A stretch of 64,000 nt of DNA from Patescibacteria group bacterium. GTDB taxonomy: Bacteria; Patescibacteriota; Patescibacteriia; UM-FILTER-42-10. The notes beneath the pieces were generated by a model, which did not search any database, was not told the origin of the DNA, and saw only the letters and a program-made list of their open reading frames with translations. The stretch lies in NCBI GenBank assembly GCA_041664365.1, contig JBAYKW010000002.1, positions 85,961 through 149,960 of the forward strand, written 5' to 3'. How positions within the stretch are numbered: the stretch's first letter is position 1; every line of letters starts with the position of its first letter. Below are positions 10,385 through 58,900 of this stretch, piece after piece. The position numbers were made by a program, and so were the translations under genes.

Positions 10385-10461
10385 GGCGATATTTACAACT
10401 TTATTCAATTCATTTATACTATTAACACTATATAATTAATTACTAGAAGGGAATTAAATAA

Positions 10462-11223: not shown

Positions 11224-11247
11224 TCCTTGATCTAGAAATAGGCTGGT

Positions 11248-18701: not shown

Positions 18702-18711
18702 TTATAAAAAT

Positions 18712-21700
18712 ATGCCAGAACCAACAAGCCCATATAATCCAAGAAATTCATCTATCATTGATGCGGATTTTAATGATATAAAAGATGAGAATGATATTGT
18801 TCCAGGGGGAGATCAAGCTCGAGGGGAGGAATCCGGTACGTCTAATTCGCAAGCTACGCCGGCAGCGGATCGAGGTGGGAGTAAATTGAGAAGAATTTTT
18901 TCTAGAAAAAAAGGTGCGCCAGTATCTGCAGATGCAGTAACGCCGGATCCTGTTGTCCCAACTCCGGATGGTAGTGGAGCGCCTGAAGCAGAGACGGTTC
19001 CAGAATTAAATGCTACGGCAAGAGATTATTTGATGTTTTTGGATATGATTCCTGAAAATGCAGATGATGTTTCGCCTGAAACAATAGCACAAGCAAATGC
19101 CTATGCAACAACACTGGAATCCATCAAGGATGATCCAAATTTTGAACCGATTGTTACTCAAATCCGAGAGAAATTTAATGATATAATGTATCGTTTACAT
19201 CTGGAACCCAGTACCCACAGCAAGAGCGAGTCTTGGACGTACTGGGATATGGCTAAACAGAAATATATAAATGACCATCCGGATCAACAGGACACCAGAT
19301 ATCGTATTGGGGACCCGCTTAAAGACGAAGTGCTTCAGGATCAAATTGCTAGCAGGCAACTGGGATGGGAAATATATAGCAAAAATTCTGTTGGTGTAGA
19401 TCATGGCGACGGATCCGGACTTGTTAGAAAATTTCAGGAGAACGTGTCAATGAATATATTGGATAAAGATAATCCCAATTATCCGGAGATAATGGAATTG
19501 CTAAAGAAAGATGCTAAACCGGAAAACGACACTTTAAGTTCCGTGGATTTAACCCGACTAGGAGCACTAATCAGGCAAAATTTAGGAGAAGAGAATGTCA
19601 GTGTACCTGAAAAAAAGGGTGCAATTTTGGGTAGAATGTGGAAAGGTGAATACATAAGTCAAAAAGAAAAAGATCATGCGAGCGCATGGGAGGAGACCGC
19701 CTGGAACGCCGGTAAATTTGCAGCTGGAGTTACTAAATTATTTGGTGCCGGAACGGCTTTTCGACTTGCTGATCGATGGGCAAAAAGAAATGCCAGATTA
19801 AGCGAAGCTGGAAGGATTATGGGGATACTTGCAGAGGAGAAAAATTTGAGGAAGAGATTAGATTCAACGACAGATGAAGATGAGAAAAAACAGATCAGGG
19901 CGAGATTAGATCAGCTGAATGTAGGTGAATCAGAAACAGGAGATGTTAGAATTCAACAAAGAATGAATTCAATGAGAAAAGAAATTAAAGAATCCAAATT
20001 TCTTTCTCAAGAAAAAAAAGTAAAGCTGGAAGAAAGACTTAGATTATTGGAAGAAAGGTGGATCAAAGGTGAAGCAGAAATACATGCTCAAATGGCGGCA
20101 GATATTGATATTGAACTTGATCGCCGTGACGCTGAAAAAGCAAGAAGGTTAAATGCCTTACAACATGCAATTGAAGGTGAGATCAGCAGTGATTTGGATG
20201 AAAATGTAGGGGAAAAAGCAAAGAAGATGGATTATGTTAAAGAGACGGTGGTGGGTGGAGTGGGTGTTGTGTCAGGTGCATTTACAATTCGTCTCGCCGC
20301 AAGTGGTGCAATTGCTTTAGGTGAAAGATTCAAAAATCTACACGATGCAAAAAAAGATGGTGAAAGAGTAACACCAAAAGAACTGATTGTTGATGGGCTC
20401 TGGGATATGGCTCGGGAGATGTTTGGCCAAGGCAGACTGAAAGGTATGGAGAAAGGAAGAAAGAAAAATATGGCTGTAGCGGGTACTTGGGCAAAGGCAA
20501 TGGTACCGGCAATGATTGCATTGGCTGGTTTTGATGAAGTGAGAGACTATGGTTCGGGTACATTCAGTAAATCAATTCAGCATGCGATAGAAAGGTCAGA
20601 AGAGGTTCAGAAAGCATGGACTGCTGTAATGAACGGTAGCGGTGATGCTGCTAAAGCCGTTTTATTAACACTAAATTGGCAAGAAACATTCCACCGAACT
20701 TTTGGATTATTTAAAGGTTTACATGGTCATGCACCGGATGCTGCACAATCAGAGAATTTGGCAAAGGGCGTGGCTCCTTCAGCAGGGGCATTCACTCCAG
20801 AAGACACTGCGGCACTTAATACACCGCACGCAGAACACTCGGGTGCAATATCAGCGGCGGAAGCTAGCAGAGTTGCCCAGGTTGCTGAGGTAGAGCCTAC
20901 ACCAGGACCGATTACAGCGGAGACTTTGAAATATGACGCACTTAAAAATGCGGGAGTCCAAGGGGGAGCGGTTCCTGACGCGCAGGTGGAACCCAGCGCT
21001 CCGGCTGAAACCAATATTCCTAAATCCGGTGAAAATTTGAGTGCACCGCGTGAGGCAGTTGCTTCAAATGCCGTGGCAGGAACAGATTCTATCCCTCCTA
21101 AGGTAGAACCGCTGGTTGGAGCAGAACAACCTACATCCTGGATGTTAAATGAACAAAGAATAATAAATTTAGAATCAAGCTTTGGAGTAGATTCAGCGGA
21201 TGGTATAACTCCTGAAGATGTGCAAAAGGTAGCAGCTCAATTGCAGGGAGTAAATGCCGATTCGGCGGATGAACTGCTTAAATCCTGGCAGGGCACGCAT
21301 CCCGAAATTGCTAATTCTATTCAGGAGTCTCGAGCGCTTGTTGGATTAGAGAAAGCATTAGGAGTAAACTCATTTGAAGGCCAGGTTTCGCCGGAAGAAT
21401 TGAAAAAGGTTATTGCCGAACTTGCCGGAGAAAATAAAGAAAACGCAGACAAGCTTTTAGCAGCCTGGGAGAGTAAAGGACTGATTGGACACGATGCTGT
21501 TTTAGCCGGACGTTTCCCAATTGAACACCCGTCAATTGAGCATGCCGGATTCCAGACGGAAACCGCGGATGCCAAAGTTGACCTTGCGCTTGATCTAGGC
21601 AAGGAAGGGGCTCCTAAATTTTTGGAGCAGGTGTTTTACCGTATGGCGCTGGATGATGCAAATATCGGTGGTGAGATTACGAACCTGGAAGGAGCTAGAA

Positions 21701-41946: not shown

Positions 41947-42960
41947 TTGCTTTATCAATTTGTAGAAAAAGGTTATAATATACACAAGATTATGGCTAAA
42001 TTCAACACATCAAAACTTCTTGAATTTCTTCTGAAAAAATACGTTGTTTTTGCGCCGGTTGAGAGGGAGAATGAACTTTTATTTCAGCGGGTATATAATC
42101 CGGGTGAAATGTCAGCTTCATTGCGTCTGCCGAAGAATTCTTTTAAACAGTTTTTACTGCCTCATGAAGAGGTTCTTTTTGATTTTACCAGTCCCAAGGT
42201 CAAGAAAACTATAACACCGCAAGTTATTTTTGGTTTGTCGCTGGTGGATCTGAAGGCGCTGATCCTGTTTGACCAGATGTTCGCAAAGGATCCGCATTAT
42301 CAGGCTCACCGTCAAAATACACTGATTGTCGGCCAATGTGTTGTCCCAGAAGATGCCAAATTTCTGAGTATCTTTGAAGAAAACGTTTTGGAAAGACTGA
42401 AATTTGATATACTGCTGGATCACCGCAAAAAAGGGGAGCCAAAGATTTTTACCGGATCCAGGCTTGGCCAAAAGACTTTGGAAAAATTTGGTTTTAATGA
42501 ATATGAGCATATTGATTTCAAAGGTTCGATCGAAGGTGGGGTGCTTGATCCTAAATCGCAGAAGCTGAAGGAACAGATGAAAAAAGTGATTAATGATAAA
42601 AAATTCTGGGAAGAATTTGCCAAGGACTGCATCATGTGCGGAAAATGCACAGTGGCCTGTCCGACCTGCTATTGCTTCGATCTGGTGGACGAGGGCGGTG
42701 AAATTGGCGATGATAAAGCGGGTGTCCGCAAGCGCCGACTGAGTTCTTGTTTTTATGATGACTTCGCGTCAATCGCCGGAGGGGAAAATTTTCTGAAAAC
42801 AAAGGCCGAGCGATTAAGAAACTATTATATCCATAAATTCATCAGAACACCGGAAAGAGAACAGATACTAGGTTGTGTCGGATGTCTGCGCTGTTTTCAG
42901 GTTTGTCCGGTGGGAATTGATATCAGAAAAATATTAGATGCGGCTTTGAAATACAAATAA
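41947..42960 (+). CDS. hydB: Iron-sulfur subunit of the sulfhydrogenase type (HydB/AsrA-like beta subunit). Alternative start at 41995.
   Basis: CIMCGKCTVACPTCYCFDL...CVGCLRCFQVCPVGIDI: two ferredoxin-like Cys clusters in the arrangement seen in the sulfhydrogenase beta subunit. Followed by a PyrK-like gamma subunit. Confidence 0.55.
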   Translation: MLYQFVEKGYNIHKIMAKFNTSKLLEFLLKKYVVFAPVERENELLFQRVYNPGEMSASLRLPKNSFKQFLLPHEEVLFDFTSPKVKKTITPQVIFGLSLVDLKALILFDQMFAKDPHYQAHRQNTLIVGQCVVPEDAKFLSIFEENVLERLKFDILLDHRKKGEPKIFTGSRLGQKTLEKFGFNEYEHIDFKGSIEGGVLDPKSQKLKEQMKKVINDKKFWEEFAKDCIMCGKCTVACPTCYCFDLVDEGGEIGDDKAGVRKRRLSSCFYDDFASIAGGENFLKTKAERLRNYYIHKFIRTPEREQILGCVGCLRCFQVCPVGIDIRKILDAALKYK

Positions 42961-43785
42961 ATGAAAAATCCTTACGAAAGTTATCCGGCTATAATCACAA
43001 AAATAGTATTAGATGCTCCTGACACCAGAGGCTTCACTTTAAAGTTCAAAGATAAAAAACGTCAGAGTAATTTTGGTTTTATTCCGGGACAGTTTATAGT
43101 CGTTGGTTTGCCCGGGATTGGTGAAATTCCGGTTGGGATAAATTCTGCAACGACGGAAAAGAAATTTGTCCAGATAACTGTTCGCGGAGTTGGGAAAGTC
43201 AGCCGAGCCATCCAGCAGAAAGCAGTCGGTTCGACGATCTATATCCGCGGACCGTACGGCAACGGCTGGCCGATGAAGGAAATTGAAAAACGGGATTTAC
43301 TGGTAATAGCCGGCGGGCTTGGGATAATCCCGCTCAAACCTTTGATTGACGAGGCTTGCCGAAAGGACTGGGGACGTCAGAACCAGGTACAGGTTTTTTA
43401 CGGTTCAAGGAATTTTAAAAACCTTTTATTTGAAACGCAATATAAAAAATGGTGTACTTTTCATGATACGCAGATAGTTCTGGATATGGCCGGTCCGCGC
43501 TGGCATGGCGAGGTCGGCAATATTACCGATCTTCTGGCAAAACACAGTACGCCGAAAAATGCGATTGTCACTGTCTGCGGTCCGCCGATTATGTATAAAT
43601 TTGTAATTCCCAAACTGCTCGAGAAAGGTTACAAGCCGGAAGATATTTACCTTTCACTGGAGCGAAAAATGTACTGTGCAATCGGAATGTGCGAGCACTG
43701 CGCGATCGGAGAAAAATATGTCTGCAAGGACGGCCCGGTATTTAGCTTAGCCGAGATTAAGGATATGCCGGAGGCTCTGGAATAA
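42961..43785 (+). CDS. hydG: FAD/NAD(P)-binding oxidoreductase with a C-terminal 2Fe-2S cluster (sulfhydrogenase gamma / PyrK-like).
   Basis: FIPGQFIVVGLPGIGEIPVG (FAD-binding), VCGPPIMYKFV (NAD-binding), C-terminal CAIGMCEHCAIGEKYVCKDGPVF Cys cluster. Confidence 0.65.
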   Translation: MKNPYESYPAIITKIVLDAPDTRGFTLKFKDKKRQSNFGFIPGQFIVVGLPGIGEIPVGINSATTEKKFVQITVRGVGKVSRAIQQKAVGSTIYIRGPYGNGWPMKEIEKRDLLVIAGGLGIIPLKPLIDEACRKDWGRQNQVQVFYGSRNFKNLLFETQYKKWCTFHDTQIVLDMAGPRWHGEVGNITDLLAKHSTPKNAIVTVCGPPIMYKFVIPKLLEKGYKPEDIYLSLERKMYCAIGMCEHCAIGEKYVCKDGPVFSLAEIKDMPEALE

Positions 43786-43789
43786 ATAT

Positions 43790-43996
43790 ATGTGTATTAC
43801 TTTACCTGGAAAAATATTATCAAAAATCGGAACTATTGCGGTCGTGGAAGCAAACGGAAGAAAAATGGAAATAAAGATTGATGCTGTGCCGGGCGTCGTC
43901 AAGGGGGACTGGATACTGGTGTATGGGGATTTGGCATTAAAAAAAATATCAAAAAAGGAAGCGGAAGAAACAATTAAAATATTATCGGATGATTAA
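43790..43996 (+). CDS. hypC: HypC/HybG-family hydrogenase maturation chaperone.
   Basis: Starts MCITLPGKI (MC[LI]xxP N-terminal Cys motif). About 68 aa OB-fold size. Confidence 0.6.
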   Translation: MCITLPGKILSKIGTIAVVEANGRKMEIKIDAVPGVVKGDWILVYGDLALKKISKKEAEETIKILSDD

Positions 43997-44936
43997 ATAC
44001 TTCAAAGCACTGCCGACGATTCAAAAGGGAATATTGTTTGCTATAGGTGCGGCGCTGGTCAGCGGAGTTGCCAATTTTGTAAACAAAAACGGAGTGTCGG
44101 CAGTCGGTGAACCGTTCGTTTATACTGCTATGAAAAATGCCGTAACGGCAATATTACTTTTAGGGGTTATATTTGCTTTTAAAAACATTCAGCAGATCAG
44201 AAGCTTAACAAAGAGAGACTGGATGAAGCTCGGCATTATTGGTTTGATCGGGGGTGGTATCTCTTTTCTGCTTTTCTTCAAAGGGCTAAGTCTTACTTCC
44301 GCATCCAGTGCTTCATTAATCCATAAGACATTATTCATCTGGGTTGCTCTGTTAGCCGTACCGTTTTTAAAAGAAAAATTCCGCTGGTACCAGTACGGCG
44401 CGCTTATTATGCTTCTGGTTGGTAATTTTATTATTGCCGGGCCGAAATCTTTTAACTGGGGGCAGGGAGAAACGCTGGTATTTATTGCAACATTGCTCTG
44501 GTCGGTAGAATTTATTGTGGCCAAAAAAGTATTGAAGACAATTCATCCCAATATTGTCGCATGGGCAAGACTATCAATTGGCGTTGTATTTATTTTGTTG
44601 TTCCTGGCATTAACTGGACGATTTGATAATTTATTGTCAGCTTCTTCTACCGGATGGGGATGGTCAATGCTAACTGGTGCTATTTTATTTCTGTTTGTAT
44701 TAACCTGGTTCCATGCTCTAAAAAGAGCTCCGGCTACGCTGGTTACAAGCGTTCTGGTTTTTGCCTCTCCGATCACAACATTTTTGGATGAGGTATTTCA
44801 GAAAAAAGCACTGGATTGGGACAGCGCGGTCGGGTCATTGCTGATTATTTCTGGTATTGCAGTTTTAACACTAAGTTTCATTCGGAATGTACGTTACAGG
44901 ATGTCCTCGCCATCTACCCTAAAACCTACTCCCTAA
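43989..44936 (+). CDS. EamA/DMT-superfamily transporter.
   Basis: Ten TM helices in two 5-TM halves, with Gly-rich helices typical of EamA repeats. Confidence 0.6.
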   Translation: MIKYFKALPTIQKGILFAIGAALVSGVANFVNKNGVSAVGEPFVYTAMKNAVTAILLLGVIFAFKNIQQIRSLTKRDWMKLGIIGLIGGGISFLLFFKGLSLTSASSASLIHKTLFIWVALLAVPFLKEKFRWYQYGALIMLLVGNFIIAGPKSFNWGQGETLVFIATLLWSVEFIVAKKVLKTIHPNIVAWARLSIGVVFILLFLALTGRFDNLLSASSTGWGWSMLTGAILFLFVLTWFHALKRAPATLVTSVLVFASPITTFLDEVFQKKALDWDSAVGSLLIISGIAVLTLSFIRNVRYRMSSPSTLKPTP

Positions 44937-44962
44937 CCCCTAATCCCTAACCCCTAATCCCT
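44916..44962. repeat. Telomere-like C-rich microsatellite (ccctaacccctaat)n spanning the stop codon of the EamA gene.
   Basis: ccctaaaacctactccctaacccctaatccctaacccctaatccctaataataa. Confidence 0.8.
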
Positions 44963-44969
44963 AATAATA

Positions 44970-45701
44970 ATGGAAGGAATCATTGCCTGCGCCCGATACG
45001 CCTATATGCCGAATAATTTGGGATATTGCGGACCTGATGAAAATGAAAACTTAATCGGGTACATTGCGAACAATGAACAGGATGACGGATTGAAAGAAAT
45101 ATTGACAGATTTTCAGACTCTGAAGCCGTATCTGAATTTTATCGCCAGAACCAACAGAATCCCTGATCCTTTTCACAAACAGGTGGTAGAAGCCTATTGG
45201 ATCGGCAACAGTTTATTAGAAAACATTTCCGCCAAGCAGTATTACAAATATTTAACTGACGAATTTTCCCTGCAGAAAAAAATTGACCGCAAATCACTGC
45301 AGTACGTGTACGGCAAACTGCCGATGGGAGCCAAACCGCATCATTCATTCCATGTTTTAAATATTTTCCGCCGGACCGGACACCTTTCCATCAACCACAC
45401 CGTTGAAACTATGGACAATTGTTGTATCAGTTATGGAAGGGTAATAAAAAAAATGACGGATAGATTGTTAGTTGAATATTCACCCTTAGAAATAATTGAA
45501 GGCAAGCTGGCAAAAGGCGGAAAAAAACAAAAAGAAATACTGCTAGAGGTTGACGGGCAGTTAATGGAAACTGAAATTAGCCCTGGTGATCTGGTAACGT
45601 TTCATTGGAATGCGGTTTGTGAAAAAATAACGCCCATGCAGGCAAATAATCTTAATATTTATACCAATCAAGCAATTACCTTAGCCAATCTATCATTATG
45701 A
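44970..45701 (+). CDS. Hypothetical protein embedded in the hydrogenase locus.
   Basis: 243 aa ORF, no motif recognised by eye. Translationally coupled to the downstream small subunit (4-nt overlap). Confidence 0.4.
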   Translation: MEGIIACARYAYMPNNLGYCGPDENENLIGYIANNEQDDGLKEILTDFQTLKPYLNFIARTNRIPDPFHKQVVEAYWIGNSLLENISAKQYYKYLTDEFSLQKKIDRKSLQYVYGKLPMGAKPHHSFHVLNIFRRTGHLSINHTVETMDNCCISYGRVIKKMTDRLLVEYSPLEIIEGKLAKGGKKQKEILLEVDGQLMETEISPGDLVTFHWNAVCEKITPMQANNLNIYTNQAITLANLSL

Positions 45702-46495
45702 CCAAGAAAATAGTAACAAAAAAAATAACAAAGAAAAAAAAGAAACCGGTTGTTGCTTTCCTGAGTCTTTCCGGCTGTGAAGGCTGCTCGTTTGCCATGC
45801 TTGATCTGGGCGGGGAATTTTTTAACGCCCTGGTGCATCATTATAAATTAGGGGAGCACCATTTCCTGGAAGAAATGAAGGGGAAGAGGCATTATGATAT
45901 CACATTTGTGGACGGCGCGCCTTTAACATTAGAAAACGCGAAAGTTTTAAAAGAAATGAGAAAAAAAACTGACTTCATGGTGGCGGTAGGCAGTTGTGCG
46001 GCTTTAGGGGTTGTACCGGGGATAAAAAACTATGTTGATAAAAAGAAGAAAGCCAGTTATGTCTACCCAAAAAATAAAACAGCATATAATCCGGATATCC
46101 ATCCTATTTCCCGCTACGTAAAAGTAGATCTGGTGATCCCCGGTTGCCCGATTGATAACAAAGAATTTTTGAAAGTGTTTACGGATGTTGCACAAGGTAT
46201 TGAACCACAGCTTTCCCACCGTCCGGTCTGTTATGAATGTCAGAGCAACGGCAATCCGTGCCTCCTGCAACAGGGTCAACCCTGTCTCGGTCCGGTGATT
46301 CAGGGCGGATGCAATGCTGTCTGCCTGAACAGCCGTTATTATTGCCGGGGCTGCCGGGGTATTTTAAAAGAGGATACAATGGATGATGCGGTAAAGACAC
46401 TCAATGCGAAGATAGAAAAGATGATCGGAAAGAAAGCACTGCATCACATTTTACAAATTTACGGGATCCAAGAAGACTGGTTGAATAGGTTGTAG
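45698..46495 (+). CDS. hydD: [NiFe]-hydrogenase small (delta) subunit, group 3-like.
   Basis: VVAFLSLSGCEGCSFAMLDLG (proximal cluster CxxC motif of the NuoB/hydrogenase small-subunit fold), plus GSCA..G and C-terminal Cys clusters. Confidence 0.7.
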   Translation: MTKKIVTKKITKKKKKPVVAFLSLSGCEGCSFAMLDLGGEFFNALVHHYKLGEHHFLEEMKGKRHYDITFVDGAPLTLENAKVLKEMRKKTDFMVAVGSCAALGVVPGIKNYVDKKKKASYVYPKNKTAYNPDIHPISRYVKVDLVIPGCPIDNKEFLKVFTDVAQGIEPQLSHRPVCYECQSNGNPCLLQQGQPCLGPVIQGGCNAVCLNSRYYCRGCRGILKEDTMDDAVKTLNAKIEKMIGKKALHHILQIYGIQEDWLNRL

Positions 46496-46639
46496 GTAGG
46501 GTAGAGGGCAAAGGGGTTAGGTTTAAGATTAGAAGTTAATGATTCAATTAGTAACTCGTAACATGTAATTCATAATTGTTGATCCTTACTCTTAATTAGC
46601 ATTCATTGCCAGAAAAAATAAATTAAAGTATAAAAAACT

Positions 46640-47611
46640 ATGCGTATCCAAATTGAGGCGGTTGAGAAATTATTAAAAAATAAACTGCGCAAAATGGGCT
46701 TTACGGCGGAAGAAGCGAAAGCAATTACTTTTGAATACATTGCCGGTGAACTTAAAGAAAAACGATCACACGGTGTCTTCGGGTTTATCAATGCTTACGA
46801 GAGACTCAAACAGACTAAGAGAGGCCATTATAAGATCGCAATCGATAAGCCGGCGTACGCATTTATTGAAGGCAACCGGGATATCGGCCAAATTGTGGCT
46901 TACAAAGCAATTGAAATGGCGATTAAGAAAGCGAAAAAAACCGGTATTGCCATGGTGGGCGGTAACAACATTCATTCGTTCTTAAGACCGGGTACCTGGG
47001 CGGAAGTGGCAGCGCGTAAAGGCATGATTGCTTTGTGTTTTAACTACGGCGGCGGTCCGTTATTGGCCCCGACCGGATCCAGAGAAGCGATCCTTTCCAC
47101 TAACCCGATCGGGATCGGCATTCCTTATAAGGAATATCCGTTTGTGATTGATATGGCGGTTTCGGAAAGAGCCTTCAATCAAATTAAACTGGCAAAAACA
47201 TTAGGTAAAAAAATACCTAGTGGCTGGGCAATTGATAAAAACGGAAAAAATACCAATGATCCGGATAAAGTTACGGCGGTTTTGCCGTTCGGCGGGTATA
47301 AGGGATATATTTTGGCGCTGGCATTGGAAATACTGACCGGGCCTTTTGTCAGGACAAAAGTTGGTAAGAAAACAAAGAATGTCCGCGGGCTTCTGTTTAT
47401 TGTAATTGATCCTTATGTATTTACGACTAAAAAAGATTTCAGCAGTGACATGAATCAACTGATTAAAGAAGTGGATGAGGCTAAAAAGATTAAAGGAGTA
47501 AAGGATATACATATACCCGGAGAAAGTGCGGCAAAAAATGAAATTAAAAAAATGAAGTCAGGATATTTTGACATTGATAAAAATATTATTGATCAGATCG
47601 AAAAACTATAA
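46640..47611 (+). CDS. Ldh_2 family (malate/L-lactate/sulfolactate dehydrogenase-like) oxidoreductase.
   Basis: ALCFNYGGGPLLAPTGSREAILSTNPIGIGIP parallels the Ldh_2 active-site region (…PWGG.E..LGTNPIA.A.P). Inserted between the hydrogenase small- and large-subunit genes. Confidence 0.55.
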   Translation: MRIQIEAVEKLLKNKLRKMGFTAEEAKAITFEYIAGELKEKRSHGVFGFINAYERLKQTKRGHYKIAIDKPAYAFIEGNRDIGQIVAYKAIEMAIKKAKKTGIAMVGGNNIHSFLRPGTWAEVAARKGMIALCFNYGGGPLLAPTGSREAILSTNPIGIGIPYKEYPFVIDMAVSERAFNQIKLAKTLGKKIPSGWAIDKNGKNTNDPDKVTAVLPFGGYKGYILALALEILTGPFVRTKVGKKTKNVRGLLFIVIDPYVFTTKKDFSSDMNQLIKEVDEAKKIKGVKDIHIPGESAAKNEIKKMKSGYFDIDKNIIDQIEKL

Positions 47612-47635
47612 ACTCTGTCGGATAATAAAATGAAT

Positions 47636-47710
47636 CCCGTTAGAAATCAATAAAAATAGCGGGAGACAAAGTTAAAATTCAATTGGATAATTCACATAAT
47701 TTCTAACGGG
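47636..47710 (+). promoter_or_regulatory. 12-nt inverted repeat pair cccgttagaaat ... atttctaacggg whose right arm abuts the hydA start codon.
   Basis: tcccgttagaaat-(about 50 nt)-atttctaacggg then ATG at 47711. The same arms recur at 52208-52304 upstream of an unrelated gene. Confidence 0.5.
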
Positions 47711-48973
47711 ATGAAAAGACGAATCAAATTTGATCATGTAGCAAAAATTGAAGGACATGCCAGCCTGATCACGGATTTGGAATCCGGCGAGATTAACCGT
47801 GCCCGGTTCAAAACGCTGGAAGGCTCCAGATTTATTGAGGGTATTTTGGTTGGTCGGAATTATCAAGAAGCACCTTTAATAACCGCGCGAATTTGTGGTG
47901 TTTGCCCCGTTGTGCACAATCTGGGCAGTATATTGGCGATTGAAGATGCGATGAAAGTAAAAGTCAGCGAGAAAACCGTTGTTTTGAGAAAACTGATGAT
48001 GTGGGGCCAGTTCATTCAGAGTCACAGCTTGCATCTTTATTTTCTCACCTTACCGGACTATTTTAAAATGCAGAACAGTCTGAAACTTCTAAAGGATTTT
48101 CCTGAAGAAACAAAACAGGCGCTGGAGATTCGTGCATTCGGTAATAAGCTGATTGAAGTGATCGGCGGACGGTCAATCCACCCCATGAATTCCGCTGTGG
48201 GTGGGTTCATGAAAAATCCTGATGAGCGGGAATTGACAATCCTTTTAAAACAGATTGACCCTTTACTTGAAATCGGAGCAAAGATTACAGGAATATTTAA
48301 TTCCTTGAAGTATCCCAAATTCTCCCGTAAAACCGAGTTTATTTCATTGACCAATAAAAAAGAATATCCGATCTATCAGGGCACGCTTACTTCTACTATA
48401 GATAAAGCGATAACCAAAGAAAAATTTATTAAGGAAGTAGAGGAAGAATACAGTAACTGGCAGAGAATTAAAAAGACCAAACTTTACGGCAAGATCTATA
48501 TGGTCGGCGCATTGGCGCGTCTCAACGTGAACCGGAATCTTTTAAAACCGAAAGCCAAAGCACTACTGAACGCATCTGGGATTGAGTTTCCTTCATACAA
48601 TACCTTCCATAATATTTTGGGGCAAATGATTGAGACGGTTAACGGTTTGGAAGAATGTAAAACACTGATCAATCAGTATTTGAAGATGAAGGGATCCTGC
48701 CTGGTAAGAAAGTACGAAATAAAAGCCGGTACCGGAATAGGTGTAATTGAGGCACCACGCGGAACCCTCTTTCATGTATACGAAATAGATAAACTGGGTT
48801 TCCTAAAGAACGTGAATATTATTACCCCTACCGCTCAGTTTGTGAATAACTTGGAGGAAGATATCAAAGCATTTCTTCCGGACATACATAATGTATCCTC
48901 TCAAGCGTCCAGAAGAAAAATTAAAATGCTGGTGCGTGCTTATGATCCATGCATGACTTGCGCCACTCATTAG
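47711..48973 (+). CDS. hydA: [NiFe]-hydrogenase large (alpha) subunit, group 3b-like. No C-terminal extension.
   Basis: N-terminal RICGVCPVVH (RxCGxC Ni-Fe ligand motif). C-terminal DPCMTCATH (DPCxxCxxH) followed immediately by the stop. Confidence 0.8.
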   Translation: MKRRIKFDHVAKIEGHASLITDLESGEINRARFKTLEGSRFIEGILVGRNYQEAPLITARICGVCPVVHNLGSILAIEDAMKVKVSEKTVVLRKLMMWGQFIQSHSLHLYFLTLPDYFKMQNSLKLLKDFPEETKQALEIRAFGNKLIEVIGGRSIHPMNSAVGGFMKNPDERELTILLKQIDPLLEIGAKITGIFNSLKYPKFSRKTEFISLTNKKEYPIYQGTLTSTIDKAITKEKFIKEVEEEYSNWQRIKKTKLYGKIYMVGALARLNVNRNLLKPKAKALLNASGIEFPSYNTFHNILGQMIETVNGLEECKTLINQYLKMKGSCLVRKYEIKAGTGIGVIEAPRGTLFHVYEIDKLGFLKNVNIITPTAQFVNNLEEDIKAFLPDIHNVSSQASRRKIKMLVRAYDPCMTCATH

Positions 48974-48974
48974 C

Positions 48975-49062
48975 GTGTCGCGTGTAGGTTCGAATTTATT
49001 CGAACGATTAAAATAAAAGCGAATGAATTCGCTTCTGCTCGGTAAAAATTGTAAGAGCAAAA
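48975..49062. repeat. Twin-hairpin miniature repeat copy (left flank of the LOG gene).
   Basis: gtaggttcgaatttattcgaac ... aaagcgaatgaattcgcttctgctcggtaaaaattgtaagagcaaaatcagaagaaataat. A 60-nt tract is near-identical to 49955-50015. Confidence 0.7.
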
Positions 49063-49139
49063 TCAGAAGAAATAATACAAACTCATTAAATATATAATTA
49101 ATCCATAGGGTTATATTCGAATTCATTTAAAATAAACAC

Positions 49140-49895
49140 ATGATAAATGAAAAATATATGAAAAGCAGAGAAGGCGAACAGCCCGAATTATTTTTTGAAC
49201 AAGATGCCGAATTAAAAGATTTAGCTCAAAGGGTTAAATATAGAGTTAGTTTATTAGGCGGTGGTAACTCTGAAGAATCTGCTAGAATTTTGGGTCATGA
49301 TTTAACTGAGAGATTTTATCCTATTCAAACGGGTGGTTATGATACAGGAGCGATGAAAGGTGGGCTAGAAGGCGCTAATCAGGCAATCAATGAAATGAGG
49401 CAAGATACACACACTAAGGAACTTTTATCTCTAGTTTATCCATACCCAAAGGGTATTACGGCTGAACGATTTGCACCTGCTTGGGTGCCAAAAGGTGAAC
49501 ACATAAAGATTGAAGTAGCTGAAGGCAATAAGGATATGTATTTGAGACTAGGGATATTAATGGAAGATTCGTCAGCAACAATTGTTTTACCAGGCGATGC
49601 GGGCACAGAACTGGAAGTATTTGCAAATTTGCATTTCGACAAAAAATTAAAACCTAAGTTTCAAGTAGAATCTAAACCGCTGATTGTCATAGGTGATTCT
49701 CATATTGAATTAATGAGAAAATTTGAAACTGTAATTAATGATAGTGATAATGTTTATATAGTACAGGATGAAACAGAGGCTCTGGAACTCGTAGACGTTT
49801 TACGAAAATTGGATAATCAATCAGATTTGGATGAAGGTGAAGTAGAGCAATTGAATGAATTTAGAATTCAGCGTCGATTAAAATTTGAAAAATAA
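49140..49895 (+). CDS. LOG/TIGR00730-family Rossmann-fold protein (cytokinin riboside 5'-monophosphate phosphoribohydrolase-like).
   Basis: TGGYDTGAMKGGLEGA and VLPGDAGTELEVF resemble the LOG GGGxxGxM and PGGxGTxEE motifs. Confidence 0.45.
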   Translation: MINEKYMKSREGEQPELFFEQDAELKDLAQRVKYRVSLLGGGNSEESARILGHDLTERFYPIQTGGYDTGAMKGGLEGANQAINEMRQDTHTKELLSLVYPYPKGITAERFAPAWVPKGEHIKIEVAEGNKDMYLRLGILMEDSSATIVLPGDAGTELEVFANLHFDKKLKPKFQVESKPLIVIGDSHIELMRKFETVINDSDNVYIVQDETEALELVDVLRKLDNQSDLDEGEVEQLNEFRIQRRLKFEK

Positions 49896-49917
49896 AATGT
49901 ATAATTAATCAATATGG

Positions 49918-50015
49918 GTAGTTTCGAATTCATTCGAAACATGTTAACAAAAAGCGAATGAATTCGCTTCTGCTCGGTAAAAATTGTAAGAGAAAAATCA
50001 GAAGAAATAATTAAA
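49918..50015. repeat. Twin-hairpin miniature repeat copy (right flank of the LOG gene), in direct orientation relative to 48975.
   Basis: gtagtttcgaattcattcgaaac ... aaagcgaatgaattcgcttctgctcggtaaaaattgtaagagaaaaatcagaagaaataat. Confidence 0.7.
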
Positions 50016-50087
50016 ATTCTAACAACGATTATCAAAAATTCAAAAAAATAATTATTAATTATACATAATAAATTTTACATTAAAACC

Positions 50088-50342
50088 ATGCATGATCTAA
50101 TGACGGCCAAAGACATCTGCGATGCAGTGCAGAAAAAAGCCAAAGAAAATAAAATGAAAACAGTTTCTGAGATTGTTATCGATCTGGGAGAGATGGAGGA
50201 TCATGGTGAAATCGTGTCGGAAGAAAATTTGCGGTTTCATCTGGATTATCTTTTAAAAGGAACACTGGCAGAAAAAGCAAAGCTAGTTTTTAATAAAGTT
50301 CCCGGCGATACAATAATTCTGCGGGAAATAGAAGGCGAGTAG
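50088..50342 (+). CDS. hypA: HypA-like hydrogenase nickel-insertion protein, N-domain only (no zinc-finger Cys).
   Basis: Starts MHDLM (the MHE Ni-binding motif). ...IDLGEMEDHGEIVSEENLRFHLDYLLKGTLAEKAKL parallels the HypA N-domain. Ends at residue 84 without the CxxC...CxxC motifs. Confidence 0.5.
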   Translation: MHDLMTAKDICDAVQKKAKENKMKTVSEIVIDLGEMEDHGEIVSEENLRFHLDYLLKGTLAEKAKLVFNKVPGDTIILREIEGE

Positions 50343-52766: not shown

Positions 52767-52906
52767 GAATAAGGTAGAATGCACAAGAAAAGCTGGATTG
52801 ATTATCCAGTTTTTTGTTGTCAACATATTGTTGACATAATGTAAAATTTGTGCTAAAATTATATGGTATAATAAAACAAAAGCAGGACAATAACCGAGAG
52901 CGTAAT

Positions 52907-55900
52907 ATGTCCGAATTTTCGGGTAAAAATAAAAGAAAATCAAAAACCAAAAAGAAACTCGTGTTTCTGATTGCTAGAAAATCGAAAAAGAAACCACAAA
53001 GGAGTAAGTCTTGGGGTATGTTAAATAAAGAAAAAAAGCATGCCTTTTTTGTTAGAAAAAAGAAAAAGGATCAAACAGCGGATTGGAAAAAATTATACCA
53101 AAAGAAATCATTTCAATTGGCGACGATTATATCAGTAGCGGTTCTGGCTGGAGCATACTGGATCTACCATGTTGTTGTGATCAATGCTGTCGCGGCAACT
53201 TATACTATTGATACAAAAGCAGAATGGGAAGCGGGCGAATTTTATCCGAATACAGTTGATACAACATCGAGCGCCAATCAGATCAAGATTAATGACGGCG
53301 GTGGCGGAACCTGGGATGGAGATACGGCCGGTTATTTAACAGATACTGCCGGCTATGACTATTGGACATATGACGGACCTTCCTACGGAGCGGATCTGAC
53401 CACTGATGGAACATATATATACCAGATTGTCGGTAACAGAAGGCCATATCTTTTTCGCTACAATCCTGAGACCAATACCTGGAAGCAACTGGCAAATGCA
53501 CCGACCGCATTTTACTATGGCGGTTCGATAACTTATGATGCTTATACTAAATCTCTCTTCGCGATTGACGGCGGTGAACAAAATGAAACGGAACAGGCAA
53601 CCAAACATGTTTATCGTTATGATATTGCCTCGGACACCTGGACAAAAGTAACTGATGCTCCTGACACCTGGGGACTTGGCTCATCTATTGCGTCCAATGG
53701 TACTGGGAAGCTGTACGCAGTGCGCGGAAGGAATACCGATGAATTATGGGAGTATGATATTAATGATCAAAATTATGATACGGGAATATGGGATCAGAAT
53801 TACTCCCAGTTGCCAACCCCGTATTTTGTCTATACGACAAACGGGCAGGCATTGGAGTTTGTTAATGAGGAATATGACGGAAAATGTACTCAAGGATGTT
53901 TATTTACATTGTATGGCAACGGAAACAGAAATTTTTTCCGTTTTGATATCGCGGAAAAAACCTGGTACCACAATTCACCAACCGATCTGACGATCCCGGT
54001 TGCACTGGGTGGGGTGAACTACGGTTCATCATTCGCTTATGACAATGACCGGGGTAATTTATTTTTACTGCATGGCGCTACTCAGTATCCTGCCAATACC
54101 ATTGCTGATAATTTTTCCAAATATGATGTATCGGGTGAAATATGGGATGTAGCGGATACTACCACTCCGGACGCTCCGGGATGGGTGACATATGGGGGGT
54201 CCTCTGTTTATCTGGATGATTTTGTTTATTCGCAGCAGGGGTATAATGGAACCCGTCCGGGACTCTGGAAGTTTGACGTCATCAATAATCGCTGGGATTC
54301 TATATCCACTCCGGACAAGGCCAATGCGGCAGTTCCGGCACTCGGACAAGGATCAACCGGCAATGGCGGAGAAAACGGGCATGTTTTGTATGTACCGAGC
54401 GGGACATATTGCGCGGATGCGGATGGTTGTCTATTTGTTTTTCGCGGAGCAAATTCTACTAGTTTTTGGAGGCGTAATATTGCTGCCAGAACCTGGACTT
54501 CCGATCTGTCGGTTACAAATTTTGGCGCACTGCAACAGGGATCATCTATGTGTTATAACGGCGCTAACCGGATATATGCACTGCATGGTGAAAGTTCACT
54601 GGCATTTTATCAGTATGAAATAAATAGCGAAGATCCTGACACTACTAATACATGGGAGGTATTGACCAGTATGCCGTCGGACCATACGGATGCGGATGAC
54701 TACCCGGATGCCGCTGCCAATGCTTCATATGGTAGTTCTATTACCTGCATGGGTACTACGGTCTATGCCTTAAAGGGTGCAGCATCCGCTGCGGGAAGTA
54801 ATCACTTCTTCAGTTATAACGGTGCTGCTTGGACTCATCTGGAACCATTGCCGCAAAGAGTGTATGCCGGTGCTGCACTTGTAAACGTTCCCTATAATGC
54901 CGGACATCCGGAGTGGTGCGCGGATACTAGCGGATGTGTTTATGCATTTACCGGGAATTTAAGAGGGGATTGGTACAGGTACAATGTCAGTGCAAATACC
55001 TGGACCGCTTTAACTGGCGACAATCTGCCGACAGCCACAATTAATACCGCATCTTTATCCTATGACGGCCAAGGTAATATTTATGCCACGGATGGAAACT
55101 TTGATACTAGAATGTGGAAATACGATATTAATGGTGATGATGGCACATGGTATCAGATTGCGGATTTGCCGGCGCGAGTTGGTTATAATAATGCCTTGGC
55201 TTATGACAGTGTTCACAATAAGATGTATTTCCAGCAGGGTATGGGCACAACTACGATCAGTAGTTTTACCCCGACCGCTAATGCCTACATTGCTTCTGCA
55301 GATTGGATTTCAGAACCGATTGATCTTGGGTTTGTAAACACGTTCACCAGTTTGGTTTCATCAGCGACAACCCCGGGTACTACTAGTGTCGCATTTCAAA
55401 CCAGAACATCTTCGGATAAAGTCAGCTGGTCCGACTGGGCAAATATCGGGGGCGGTGACACGATTCAATCTGATGAAGCACAATATATCCAGGTTAAAGC
55501 AGCTTTAACTTCAGATGGTGTTAATACCCCAACCCTGACCAGTATTACGATAAATTACGATAAGGACGGTACTTCGCCGACAAACCCCTCTGTGAGTGGC
55601 TATGCAGATAGTTTAAAAGCGACCACGCTGACTTCCGGATATGCCAACGGGTATCACTATACTAATCCGTACTTTGAATGGACAGCGCCGACTGATGATT
55701 CCGGGATTGCCGGTTATTATGTCGCCTGGACAACCAATAGTGCTTTTAATCCATCGGACGATGAGGATTATTTTCAAACCGGAACATCATTTGAAGTAAA
55801 TACTGACATGGTCACTGCCGCTCCCGGACCGAATTATTATTTACGAATTCAGGTGAAAGACAATTCCGGCAACACGGCTGCAACCACGACAGCGTTTACT

Positions 55901-58900
55901 TACACATATACTGGTATTGCTTCAGCAACTGAAACAATATGGGATGACCAGGCTGAATTTTCACTTGGTACGGACAGCAATATTAATACCGCAGCGAACG
56001 GCAATTTAGACATGACTCTGGATGCAATCAGTCCTGGTACCTGGATGGATCTGCCGGCAGTCGGGACTAATGCATTGGGCGGATTGACGATGTATAATGA
56101 CACATCGCTTGCCTGGGACGGTAACGATACAGTTTATGTTTTGCGTTCAATCAACACACAAACATTTTTGAAATATACTATATCCACAAAAACATGGACT
56201 GCTTTAGCTAATACCGGTGCCAATGCATATACAGGTTCAGCGATTGTATACGTTCCGGACGGAATCAGTAGTGGTTGTACGGATGACGGCGGTTGTATTT
56301 TTGCCACCATGGGTAATGGAACCGGATTTCGGCGTTATGATATTTTGGCAAATACTTGGACTGGGCTAACGGTAGTGCCATTATCAGTTGGCTATGGAGG
56401 GGGGCTAATCTGGACAGGGGGAGATTATATTTTTGCTTCCCGTGGCGCCGGACAAGTTAATTTTTACCGCTACTCAATCTCAGCAGGCACGTGGTCCGAT
56501 CCGGCGGCGGCTGATCCGGATATTGCATTCAACTATGGTGCTTCTTATTCTTATGTTCCTAATGGCGATTACTGTCTTGATCTTCAAGGTTGTATCTTTG
56601 CTACACGTGGTGGCGGATCCAACCATTTTTGGCGCTATGATATTCAAAACGGGGCTTGGACATTTTTAACCGCCGTGCCTTCCTCAGCACCTTCCAAGAC
56701 GAATTATGGCGCAACTATGACATTTGATAATGGCTATTTGTACTATGTTGGCGGTACCTATACAACAGATTTTCTGAAGTACGATATTATCAATGATTTG
56801 TGGAGCAATATGCCGGATCTGCCTGCAACACACAATTATGGTTCTACAAATGGGATGGTGTATGACACAACGAGTGATATTATCTATATCATGCGAAGTT
56901 ATAATGAATACAGCTTCCTAAGCTTTGATGTATTAGAAAATGAATGGCGCAATCCAACCATGCCACATGGCGGTTCCAGCAATGGATTCTACTATGGTGG
57001 TGTGGCTTATGACGGTAATGATACTTTATATATTACGCGAGGTAATCCAGGAGCGACTGCTGATTTCTATAAATATACCATCTCAACTAAAGCATGGCAG
57101 AGAATGATGGATGTGCCGATGCGTATGAATACCGGATCTGACCTGATTTATGTTGGCGGCAAAGTATACGCACTAACCGGTGCGCCGCCTTATGGTGAAG
57201 TTATATCCCGATTTTATGAATATGATCCCGCGACCAATATGTGGACGCGTAAGGGGGACACGCCGGCGGCAGTCGGTGATGGAGCGAAGTTGGTATTTGA
57301 CGGTAATAACACAATATATACCGCGCGTGGCGCTGGGCAGACGCAGTTTTATTCTTATAAAATTTCTGGCACATCCAGTGGAGCATGGACAACTCAAATT
57401 GAAGCTACGCCAGCGGCAATTAATCAAGGTGCCTGCGCAGTTTGGGATAGTGACGCGGCTGACAAGCTCTATATGATTCGCGGGTCAAACCAACGCGATA
57501 TTTATTATTGTAATTTATCAACTGACGTAAATGGAGTAGGGACTTGCGACTGGCAGTTGGACACGCTGACCGACATTACACTTGGCTATGCTGCTCAATT
57601 TGGTAATGCCTGTACTTATGATAGTGGAAATATTTTTGTACCACGCGGTAATACAAATAATACCGATTTCCTGGTTTATGATATTGACGGCGCAGCCAAC
57701 GGCTCTTGGTCGGTCCGATCGCTCAATAATTTCTACTATGGTGGTCGTCTGATTACCGGTCCGGATAATATTCTTTACGGATTCCGCGGTTATAACACAT
57801 CTACTATGGACCGCTATGTTCAGCAGACTGCCACGACCAGTTTTCAAAGAACCGGTACCTGGACTTCACAAATCGTCAGCGTACCTAGTATTTATAGTTT
57901 CGGTGGATTGACCGTTAATGACACTGTCGCAGAAAATACTTCACTTATTTATCAAACACGCACCTGTTCCAACAGCGGTTGTTCAGCAGATGAAGGTAAT
58001 GTTAACTGGTCTACATGGACGGATGTTTCCAATGCTCAGATCAGCGGAACAACTGACCATTATACTATCGAATCAACTCCAGCTCAATATATTCAGGTTA
58101 GAGCTACCTTCAATTCAGATCGGGTCTATACGCCAACGGTCAATGATTTCAGCATCAGCTATTACACGGATGGGGTAGATCCGAATAACCCGGCAGTTCC
58201 GGTGAATGGGTATACCAACAACAGTAAAACAACCGGAATTACCAATAATACTTGGACGAATGACTCGACACCTTATTTTGAGTGGACTTCGTCTGATAAT
58301 GTCGGAGGGATTGGAATTGAAGGTTATTATGTTTACTTTGGGACAGATATTACAAAAGATCCTGTTGACAATGCTAGCGACCCGACAAATTTAGCTTATA
58401 ATAGTGGAACAAATTATTATAATGTTGCCTCTGACCATATAACCGGTTCATGGAATGCCGCTACGCAAAGCAGTGCTGCGATTACAAATGGAAATTATTA
58501 CTTAAGAATAAAAACAAAAGATATCAACGGCAATATCACTGACAGTGCAGTAGATGGATTTACATTCTTAATTGATAATAGTCTACCGAATAACATTACG
58601 GATTTGTCTGTTGGAACTTATATGTCTTCAGCTGACGATTTTGATTTTACCTGGACTAATGTTAATGATGAGGGATCATCCGGCATTGCCCAGTATTGCT
58701 ATCATACCGGCAGCTCAGGTGATACATGTGTCAATGATGAAACAATCTGCAGTGGCGGAACATGTACGCTTAGTAATGTCCCGCACTATCAGACCCGTGT
58801 AAATACTTTTTATGTCCGTGCGCGAGATACAGCTAATAATGATGCTGCGAGCTATGCATCTACCGGTTATTTTTATACCGGAGGTCCGCCAAATGCACCG

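Follow-up and report, generated by a model that had tools for sequence, protein, structure and literature searches.

A Patescibacteria hyd1 group 3b-like [NiFe] hydrogenase operon with a tail-less large subunit and a proposed minimal maturation mechanism

The maturation of [NiFe] hydrogenases is usually described as the work of six Hyp proteins and a protease. The sulfhydrogenases I and II of Pyrococcus furiosus (HydBGDA/ShyBCDA) and the Hyh enzyme of Thermococcus kodakarensis (structures 9e15, 9nez, and 5yxy) share with the enzyme considered here the set of four subunits, alpha, beta, gamma, and delta. Clades related to group 3b that are specific to the Patescibacteria (Candidate Phyla Radiation, CPR) have already been defined by Jaffe et al. 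2020 (PMC7304191). The available parts of that paper describe a 'hyd1' clade in which the small subunit has its full length and genes for beta, gamma, and the hypC family are located nearby, the beta and gamma genes being 'not immediately upstream' of that for the small subunit and not always adjacent. The available parts of Valentin-Alvarado et al. 2024 (PMC10811913) also model this clade. Here we describe a hydrogenase locus from a Patescibacteria group bacterium, located at positions 41,947 to 50,342 of a 64,000-nucleotide stretch (contig JBAYKW010000002.1 of assembly GCA_041664365.1, positions 85,961 to 149,960), which in its whole length is called the window below. We read it, with a probability of roughly 70% for the reading as a whole, as an intact operon for a cytoplasmic group 3b [NiFe] hydrogenase of the hyd1 clade that would be matured by a minimal mechanism.

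The window enzyme is a member of the CPR hyd1 clade, is group 3b-like, and as an enzyme is already known. Among solved structures the large subunit HydA is closest to the alpha subunit of P. furiosus sulfhydrogenase I (SHI; 198.8 bits, E 1.5e-57) and to T. kodakarensis HyhL (191 bits), followed by Mvh (group 3c, 186 bits), Hox (3d, 150 bits), and Frh (3a, 148 bits), with only a narrow margin of 3b over 3c. The best NCBIfam models for the four subunits are those of ShyABCD/HydABDG, although all scores are far under the equivalog cutoffs. Against the ShyA/HydA equivalogs HydA reaches 275.8 bits (cutoff 700) and 219 bits (cutoff 880), and it is best regarded as a distant branch and not as an orthologue of the Pyrococcus enzymes. 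The assignment to group 3b is taken from these PDB and NCBIfam rankings, and the only tree built was a neighbour-joining tree of the fetched relatives. C62, C65, C414, C417, and H420 of HydA are invariant in 16 diverse homologues, an AsrA-like beta subunit (hydB) and an AsrB-like gamma subunit (hydG) are encoded in the same operon, and the closest source-labelled database proteins come from Patescibacteria or Kerfeldbacteria. An earlier note on this DNA, made from the letters alone, had called the enzyme sulfhydrogenase-like, which agrees with SHI alpha and HyhL as best solved relatives and with the AsrAB-like beta and gamma subunits. All ten open reading frames (ORFs) listed in that note are present on the forward strand (Table 1), and their family assignments hold in Pfam and NCBIfam.

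The locus is an intact operon that is conserved in Patescibacteria. For comparison, 80 species-level loci were fetched from GTDB genomes and then scored with phmmer (handles beginning with L denote loci of relatives). The closest relative, L001 (96% HydA identity, on a 1.18-Mb contig), has the gene order of the window minus the LOG-like gene. L003 (Kerfeldbacteria) and L005 (Patescibacterium), both with about 51% HydA identity, have the order hydB-hydG-eamA-X-hypC-hydD-Ldh_2-hydA-hypA with a HypA of 85 aa, and the gene order also recurs in 40+ GTDB loci. In the non-CPR group 3b relatives from archaea, Planctomycetota, Nitrospirota, Actinomycetota, and Chloroflexota hydB-G-D-A are contiguous; the CPR loci have accessory genes between hydG and hydD. 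The nine genes common to the window and L001 have ratios of nonsynonymous to synonymous substitution rates (dN/dS) of 0.013-0.087 with saturated dS (hydB 0.029, hydG 0.020, hypC 0.087, eamA 0.059, DUF6390 0.060, hydD 0.023, Ldh_2 0.045, hydA 0.017, short hypA 0.013), and therefore none of them is a pseudogene. Thus, what had been described as a fragmented locus shows conserved synteny under strong purifying selection. The genes from hydB through hydG, hypC, eamA, and DUF6390 to hydD are tightly spaced, as neighbours either overlap or are no more than 33 nt apart, and gaps of 99-192 nt are found around Ldh_2, hydA, the LOG-like gene, and hypA. Judging from its L001 homologue, which is called at 322 aa, hydB likely starts at ATG 41992. 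Genes of glycolysis and those for PFOR and acetate kinase adjoin the locus in relatives, and the window has genes for PFK and aldolase.

The large subunit ends with YDPCMTCATH followed directly by the stop codon, and its tail length is 0. The earlier note had already claimed that there is no C-terminal peptide behind DPCMTCATH, and this proves to be a trait of the whole lineage and not a local oddity: among the best 120 homologues there are 118 with a recognisable L2 motif, and all 118 end exactly at its His. Within the fetched loci, 51 have a tail length of 0 and the 35 non-CPR group 3b relatives have tails of 5-24 residues, typically FLDVEWE. In the neighbour-joining tree all tail-0 sequences except one fall into a single clade, which is CPR hyd1, and CPR enzymes of the 'hyd2' type (L087, L089) have kept tails of 7-8 residues. 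The exception is L058 from Armatimonadota (hydA at 9950-11254), the sole non-CPR relative ending at the L2 His; because it groups with tailed sequences, its tail loss looks independent. In the phmmer-scored loci HycI-like proteases were found in tailed loci only, with no HycI homologue in those from CPR. The window also has none over its full 64 kb (phmmer with E. coli proteins), in line with the earlier statement that no protease gene is present locally.

The hypA gene behind hydA is short in a defined way. It had been noted that its product keeps the MH(D/E) nickel site and has no zinc finger, which is correct, and that it ends before the finger, which is not: alignment with full-length HypAs shows that the CxxC...CxxC insert of about 40 residues is missing while the final β-strand (IILREIEGE) is kept. 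Because this strand, located after the zinc finger, is retained, the loss of the finger is a clean internal excision and not a 3' truncation. An exhaustive search of 1.84 billion representatives yielded 75 clusters of such proteins, mostly of 78-95 aa. In 40 representatives M1 and H2 are invariant, D3 is present in 37/40, His39 in an (E/D)H loop in 34/40, and CxxC in 0/40. The AlphaFold2 model (predicted local distance difference test, pLDDT, of 85) has the alpha/beta fold of the Ni domain, and the top 14 matches of a Foldseek search against the PDB are all HypA, including T. kodakarensis 3a43_B with a query-normalised template modelling (TM) score of 0.88 and a root mean square deviation of 2.0. 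The protein scores 42.7 bits in Pfam (gathering cutoff 28.9) and 38.5 bits against NCBIfam TIGR00100 (cutoff 88.1). A short hypA is located downstream of hydA in 42 of the 51 tail-0 loci. Of the other nine, L028 and L033 break off 688 and 13 nt behind hydA, and in L049, L050, L056, L058, L059, L062, and L064 there is no short HypA in the 2-10 kb downstream of hydA. That the local hypA is a pseudogene, as considered in the earlier note, is ruled out by its dN/dS of 0.013. The short HypA is thus a conserved and selected family whose model is a complete Ni domain, and it would function in nickel delivery. In Helicobacter pylori, metal coordination at the zinc site of HypA is important for hydrogenase activity according to the available part of the report (PMC5557546), and a HypA that is zinc-less throughout a lineage therefore deserves attention. 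Nothing relevant linking HypA with Patescibacteria was found in the literature searched.

Several variants of the short HypA were observed. In Moranbacteria (L018, L037) the loop with the conserved His is expanded to His-rich runs, PHDHHHDHAHDEH or PHNHQHEHEHDEH, which resemble the nickel-storage tracts of HypB and SlyD. L090 (4777-8723) encodes a 3b large subunit with a nine-residue tail, HycI, and a zinc-less MHE HypA of 90 aa followed by hypC-eamA-DUF6390, and has a gene for a cNMP-binding protein between hydB and hydG; it is an apparent intermediate architecture. Two very long repeat proteins matching the short HypA (P0361, P0363) were discarded, as their weak matches had accumulated over repeats.

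The ORF that had been left as hypothetical between eamA and hydD is a DUF6390 gene (Pfam E 1.3e-55), and it is the companion of an unusual HypC. The HypC of the window starts with MCITLPGK and passes the cutoffs of both Pfam (63.8 bits, cutoff 28.5) and TIGR00074 (51.6 bits, cutoff 48), and it belongs to a subclass without His51, having Tyr in the column of this residue. His51 (E. coli numbering) is implicated in Fe/CO2 binding. It is present in HypC from 9/9 HypD-encoding loci and in 0/14 of the HypCs adjacent to DUF6390. A search of 5.8 billion proteins gave 314 homologues of DUF6390, of which the source-labelled minority are all from Patescibacteria/CPR. In the AlphaFold2 model (pLDDT 91) a helical Cys/His domain (residues 1-150), for which Foldseek found no solved-structure match in the PDB, is followed by a C-terminal HypC-like oligonucleotide/oligosaccharide-binding (OB) barrel plus helix (151-240). 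The barrel matches T. kodakarensis HypC (2z1c_B) with a target-normalised TM score of 0.68, and hhalign aligns residues 151-233 with residues 2-66 of HypC, that is the whole HypC, with a probability of 96.3% (E 1.9e-9). C151 aligns with HypC Cys2 and H212 takes the position of His51, both being invariant like C20, H125, H128, and C217. An analogy of DUF6390 to HypD was considered and rejected, given an hhalign probability of 0.1% against a HypD profile.

In all five loci that were sampled starting from DUF6390, this gene adjoins hypC and a [NiFe] hydrogenase. In four of these loci (L087, L089, L090, L091) the order is hypC-eamA-DUF6390, and this triad is also found in many hyd1 loci. The hydrogenases beside DUF6390 are of three types, hyd1/3b, a small hyd2 type, and one with a 625-aa large subunit and a NifU/Rieske gene. 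The latter is found in L088 (553-8750), where DUF6390 and hypC follow a HycI gene and where a 442-aa small subunit with NiFe_hyd_SSU_C and a NifU-Rieske protein are encoded as well, together with several small ORFs without annotation and, upstream, a ParA/Mrp-like ATPase; being of a different [NiFe] type, this locus indicates that DUF6390 is not tied to group 3b. No hypD, hypE, or hypF was found within 8-10 kb in any of 19 DUF6390 loci (14 obtained via HydA including the window, five via DUF6390). The earlier note had spoken of interleaved non-hydrogenase genes, which is partly right. However, because DUF6390 has a HypC-like domain and moves together with hypC and EamA beside hydrogenases, these three genes probably belong to the hydrogenase system. 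DUF6390 may be a maturation factor, a candidate co-scaffold acting together with HypC, and EamA may move a small molecule needed for the same process. In the literature searched DUF6390 is not mentioned. A conserved protein of about 270 aa without a Pfam match occupies the DUF6390 slot, as eamA-X-hypC, in the Kerfeldbacteria-like loci L003 (6066-6896), L005 (6961-7773), and L006 (8274-9059). As its hhalign comparisons with DUF6390 and HypC were not significant, it was treated as apparently unrelated.

A gene of the Ldh_2 family indeed separates the small and the large subunit genes in the window, as had been seen before. Its product matches Pfam PF02615 over residues 3-320 with 282.7 bits (cutoff 38.8), and the closest structure is the L-sulfolactate dehydrogenase 2x06 of Methanocaldococcus jannaschii (E 1.2e-51). 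It remains under all substrate equivalog cutoffs, the best being sulfolactate dehydrogenase with 229.8 bits against 500, and is therefore not given a specific substrate. Checking the conservation of the insertion, as the earlier note had proposed, gave a divided result: the gene is kept between hydD and hydA in the window, L001, L003/L004, and L005, which make up one sub-clade of the tree, whereas about 40 further CPR loci encode this enzyme without it, hydA following directly on hydD. Because the carriers form a single sub-clade, the insertion appears to have arisen once. In L003 and L005, Ldh_2 overlaps hydA by 4 nt, and the neighbourhood of these loci includes genes for PGK, enolase, PFOR, PTA, and acetate kinase. 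Because the same enzyme occurs without Ldh_2 in about 40 CPR loci, the Ldh_2 protein would serve redox balance as a co-transcribed, alternative sink of NAD(P)H and would not be a core subunit. The suggestion of a hydrogenase coupled to an organic-acid dehydrogenase is accordingly weak, being limited to the sub-clade of the window.

The maturation genes at related loci vary considerably. In the window no homologue of HypB, HypD, HypE, or HypF was found (phmmer with E. coli proteins, and Pfam on the other ORFs). Loci of the Moranbacteria type (L015, L009, L018, L021, L026, L029, L032, L037) have the order hypC-hypD-hypE-hypF-hydD-hydA-short hypA and have neither hydB nor hydG. Their hypF genes (e.g. 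L015:7485-8843, reverse strand) encode only 340-450 aa that match the Kae1-like C-terminal domains (PF17788, PF22521); the acylphosphatase, zinc-finger, and YrdC parts that E. coli HypF (750 aa) has in addition are missing. Fusions of an N-terminal HypC with a radical-SAM protein are found in CPR at L027:6825-8075, L028:6239-7504, L033:6415-7713, and L036:7944-9206, and fusions are also encoded at L047:15583-16878 (Scalindua), L059:11794-13044 (Saccharibacteria), L060:4267-5742 (Nitrospirae), and L063:8362-9711 (Woesearchaeota). The five tested (L027, L047, L059, L060, L063) pass the HydE cutoff of TIGR03956 with 262-289 bits against 254.6. HydE is a maturase of [FeFe] hydrogenases. These HypC-HydE fusions are located inside group 3b [NiFe] loci of unrelated phyla, and in CPR they take the same slot as hypC-eamA-DUF6390. 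Nothing on HypC-radical-SAM or HypC-HydE fusions was found in the literature searched.

Based on these observations the following mechanism is proposed. The alpha-beta-gamma-delta complex would exchange electrons between H2/H+ and NAD(P)(H), possibly also polysulfide, in a fermentative cell. HydA would be made at its mature length without an endopeptidase step, and in the manner of the extension-less enzymes of groups 2b and 4 the active site of the tail-less subunit could close unaided after metal insertion. The Fe(CN)2CO unit would be delivered by the His51-less HypC together with DUF6390, which would contribute a second HypC-like domain and its Cys/His-rich helical domain, and the EamA transporter that usually accompanies them would supply or remove a small molecule; homology and gene linkage point to this step. 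The enzymes making the CN and CO ligands (HypD/E/F or a substitute) would, if present, be encoded outside the window. Nickel would be inserted by the HypA consisting of the Ni domain only, with the MHD N-terminus and the conserved loop His as putative ligands and apparently with no HypB encoded locally. The fold, the motifs, and the adjacency to hydA of this protein are as described above, and its role in nickel insertion is presumed from them. The Ldh_2 2-oxoacid reductase, inserted in the sub-clade of the window, would be a co-expressed second NAD(P)H sink and not a subunit, and the LOG-like gene between duplicated spacer repeats would be strain-specific. The streamlined maturation suggested in the earlier note is thus a fair inference from the lineage-wide tail-less HydA and the conserved zinc-less HypA.

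Several points weigh against this reading. The compared loci were chosen by HydA similarity, their counts are not phylogenetically independent, and the neighbour-joining tree is a simple one without support values. Promoter and terminator scans of the region at 41-51 kb did no better than shuffles, and we thus infer the operon structure from gene spacing only; an Rfam scan of the same region found no RNA families. The absence of hypB/D/E/F and of a protease applies only to the 64-kb window and to 10 kb on either side in the relatives. A profile of seven CPR HypDs, searched against 5.8 billion proteins, returned among the best 120 of at least 8000 matches only Moranbacteria-type CPR HypDs and none on large contigs with window-type loci, and was not used as evidence. 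In addition, hypC-D-E-F genes are adjacent to a tail-less enzyme in some CPR relatives (L009, L015, L018, L021, L032, L037, L056), and the canonical machinery is therefore compatible with such an enzyme. In L090 the HypA is zinc-less, but the large subunit has a tail and a HycI protease is encoded, so the two reductions, of tail and of zinc finger, are not strictly linked. Finally, the roles given to DUF6390, EamA, and Ldh_2 are putative ones, suggested by homology and gene linkage only.

The most radical alternative would be that the cluster is decaying, broken by insertions and with a truncated or non-functional hypA, so that the enzyme is no longer matured. The non-canonical gene order, the short HypA under the NCBIfam equivalog cutoffs, the repeat-flanked gene inside the cluster, and the absence of hypB/D/E/F and protease genes from 64 kb could all be understood in this way. 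It is hard to imagine, however, how decay would leave the same order and the short HypA in dozens of species-level genomes, dN/dS values of 0.013-0.087 at saturated dS, catalytic residues that are all invariant, and a HypA model that is a complete Ni domain. The decay reading was rejected on dN/dS and synteny, and we consider it hardly credible. It is less far-fetched, although still quite improbable, that the hydrogenase has Ldh_2 as its fifth subunit or as a partner it cannot do without, which would turn the complex into an H2:2-oxoacid oxidoreductase or into an enzyme that evolves H2 driven by a 2-hydroxyacid. The position of the gene between those of the small and large subunits, its 4-nt overlap with hydA in L003 and L005, which suggests translational coupling, the purifying selection, and an EamA transporter of carboxylate/amino-acid type in the operon would fit such a role. 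Yet the gene is confined to one sub-clade, and about 40 CPR loci with the four subunits, HypC, and the short HypA go from hydD to hydA without it. In the window it is set off by gaps of 144 and 99 nt, and physical coupling is not required, as free NAD(P)H serves both enzymes.

The remaining alternatives concern the maturation itself. It may well be, with chances somewhat short of even, that maturation is fully canonical, with hypB/D/E/F and perhaps a full-length hypA elsewhere in the genome of about 1.2 Mb, DUF6390 and EamA being passengers. Other CPR lineages with the tail-less enzyme do have adjacent hypC-D-E-F, hydrogenases of the sensor and Ech types, which have no extension either, are matured by the usual Hyp proteins (PMC7294309), and HypC is present, whose sole known partner is HypD. 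However, none of the 19 DUF6390 loci has hypD/E/F within 8-10 kb, the DUF6390-linked HypCs have no His51 although every HypD-linked HypC has kept it, and a HypC-domain protein that is locked to hypC over three hydrogenase types is hard to square with a passenger. The reverse possibility, that HypC, EamA, and DUF6390 form an alternative assembly route for Fe(CN)2CO replacing HypD/E/F in reduced genomes, appears unlikely. The triad is strictly linked to [NiFe] hydrogenases and locally exclusive with hypD/E/F, the His pattern is complementary (HypC without His51, DUF6390 with an invariant His), DUF6390 has conserved Cys/His residues, and the HypC-HydE radical-SAM fusion at the same slot in sister loci implies that this slot holds variable genes of cofactor chemistry. 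On the other hand, DUF6390 has neither a recognisable catalytic fold nor similarity to HypD, and there is no obvious source of CN and CO. In addition, the absence of hypD/E/F covers only the surroundings of the loci, and L088 and L090 pair the module with a HycI protease. A little more doubtful still is a complete second minimal pathway, in which Fe(CN)2CO would be made without HypD/E/F, by the triad or by the HypC-HydE fusion in sister loci, the zinc-less HypA would work without HypB, and proteolysis would be dispensed with. The reading that we prefer, an intact hyd1 operon with the minimal mechanism outlined above, would leave the makers of CN and CO, be it HypD/E/F or a substitute and if present, outside the window.

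Table 1. Genes and repeats of the hydrogenase locus, in positions of the window
Feature	Position	Strand	Product, matches, and remarks
hydB-like	41947..42960	+	beta subunit, Fe-S, AsrA/ShyB-like; maximal ORF from TTG; Pfam Fer4_22 E 1.4e-27; NCBIfam ShyB E 3.4e-34, AsrA E 6.9e-32
hydG	42961..43785	+	gamma subunit, FAD/NAD(P)-binding + 2Fe-2S diaphorase; Pfam NAD_binding_1, FAD_binding_6, DHODB_Fe-S_bind; NCBIfam hydrogenase gamma E 7.5e-68
hypC	43790..43996	+	Fe(CN)2CO chaperone; Pfam HupF_HypC E 1.6e-17; 8-nt overlap with eamA
eamA	43989..44936	+	EamA/DMT-family transporter; Pfam EamA E 4.3e-37
DUF6390	44970..45701	+	Pfam DUF6390; 4-nt overlap with hydD
hydD	45698..46495	+	delta (small) Fe-S subunit; Pfam Oxidored_q6 E 6.6e-21; NCBIfam ShyD E 2.5e-47
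Ldh_2	46640..47611	+	NAD(P)H-dependent 2-hydroxyacid dehydrogenase family (malate/lactate/sulfolactate type); Pfam Ldh_2 (PF02615) E 4.9e-84
hydA	47711..48973	+	alpha (large, catalytic) subunit; L1 RICGVCPVVH; L2 DPCMTCATH, then stop
left direct-repeat copy	49015..49132	.	70 + 48 nt; holds palindromic hairpin AGCGAATGAATTCGCT
LOG-like ORF	49140..49895	+	divergent LOG/TIGR00730-like Rossmann protein; weak family matches
right direct-repeat copy	49892..50019	.	
short hypA	50088..50342	+	84 aa; Pfam HypA E 6.5e-11

The spacer between hydA and hypA contains the one gene of the locus that is missing from L001 and from all other loci. The ORF taken for a LOG gene in the earlier note exists but is only weakly LOG-like, as it misses the curated thresholds (Pfam 20.3 bits, cutoff 27; TIGR00730 21 bits, cutoff 96). 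The repeats described around it are real: the direct repeat consists of 70 nt (94% identical) and 48 nt (81%) and forms an element that is about 118 nt long and contains palindromic hairpins, and its 41-nt core has exactly two occurrences in the window (chance expectation 0). Related repeat sequence is present in the 207-nt hydA-hypA spacer of L001, and duplicated palindromic elements, TTCGAATTCATTCGAA and AGCGAATGAATTCGCT, were seen in this spacer in both the window (48973-50088) and L001. Among relatives the spacer is 2-3012 nt long (those of L014 and L030 were also compared), and in L005 it has a 23S_rRNA_IVP gene (11288-11653). The hydA-hypA spacer is an insertion hot spot, and the LOG-like gene is probably strain-specific and unrelated to the hydrogenase system.

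The rest of the window is typical of Patescibacteria, with PFK, aldolase, ComEC, DsbA-like proteins, tRNA synthetases, and giant surface proteins. There are three giant ORFs, one of 2973 aa (52850-61771) whose L001 homologue has Kelch, fn3, and PhoD_N-type matches, one of 1630 aa without a Pfam match (18646-23538), and one encoding an NHL/FG-GAP repeat protein of 1115 aa (12709-16056), which are probably surface proteins typical of CPR episymbionts. An ORF at 6204-6719, after a gene with a metallo-beta-lactamase fold, partially matches an IS200-like Y1 transposase (E 3.5e-8), namely over the C-terminal portion of the model only, and may be an element that has decayed or been domesticated. Three paralogous DsbA/Thioredoxin_4 genes (8518-9225, 10462-11223, 12018-12620) are interleaved with genes for a Vut_1 vitamin-uptake transporter, a CoA-binding protein, and lgt.

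The enzyme is of a known kind, but the lineage-wide combination of a large subunit without extension, a HypA without zinc finger, and a HypC-domain/transporter module is absent from the literature searched. In this lineage nature provides a minimal system in which one could ask how much of the maturation machinery can be dispensed with, and the zinc-less HypA together with the tail-less HydA suggests that this metal enzyme may be assembled in a simpler way. DUF6390 and the transporter, locked to hypC as they are, are specific candidates for genes of a new maturation chemistry. A review (PMC12134894) still counts the anaerobic source of the CO ligand among the unsolved questions, and the HypC-HydE fusions could bear on the anaerobic making of diatomic ligands. 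The compact gene sets of about 8 kb could ease the heterologous production of NAD(P)-linked hydrogenases. For the biology of the CPR, H2 metabolism is genetically tied to a 2-oxoacid reductase and in relatives to genes of glycolysis, PFOR, and acetate metabolism, and this link to fermentation genes may refine models of redox balance in CPR symbionts.

In comparison with known systems, the Ldh_2 protein matches its family (ComC 2x06, the archaeal type-2 malate/lactate dehydrogenases, and AllD) over the full length and is nearest to the archaeal ComC/MdhII type, but its gene is located between hydrogenase subunit genes in the window and in 0/35 of the fetched non-CPR relatives. DUF6390 shares with HypC/HybG/HupF the OB barrel plus helix and the equivalents of Cys2 and His51. 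It differs in that its Cys is internal (151 of 243 residues) behind a helical domain of 150 residues, whereas HypC, with about 70-90 residues, has its Cys at the processed N-terminus, and in that it is encoded in addition to a HypC of normal length, never instead of it. The short HypA has the N-terminal Met-His-(Asp/Glu), the Ni-domain fold, and the hydrogenase adjacency of HypA/HybF (T. kodakarensis 3A43, H. pylori 2KDX/6G81, E. coli HypA), but it has no zinc domain, an extra loop with a conserved His, MHD instead of MHE, and no hypB nearby. With the CPR hyd1 clade there is no difference in the enzyme; the missing extension, the zinc-less HypA, DUF6390/EamA, and the Ldh_2 insertion are not mentioned in the available parts of PMC7304191 and PMC10811913, where the word 'maturation' occurs 0 times in either. 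The hydrogenases published as naturally extension-less belong to groups 2b, 2d, 4c, 4e, and 4g and include no group 3 (PMC7294309). The H2 sensors (2b/2d, e.g. Ralstonia eutropha HoxC), CooH (4c), Ech (4e), and the 4g enzymes also end at the L2 His and need no endopeptidase (PMC7294309), but they are sensory or membrane-bound energy-converting enzymes that use the complete canonical Hyp set, whereas the window enzyme is a soluble one of group 3. Compared with the P. furiosus and T. kodakarensis enzymes, the window enzyme is about 30% identical, its structural genes are not contiguous, and its HypA has no zinc finger. The HydA precursor of P. furiosus has four residues after the final His (428 aa against 424 aa in the mature protein) and that of the window has none, and because the tail of the Pyrococcus protein is only four residues long, the evolutionary step to its loss would have been small.

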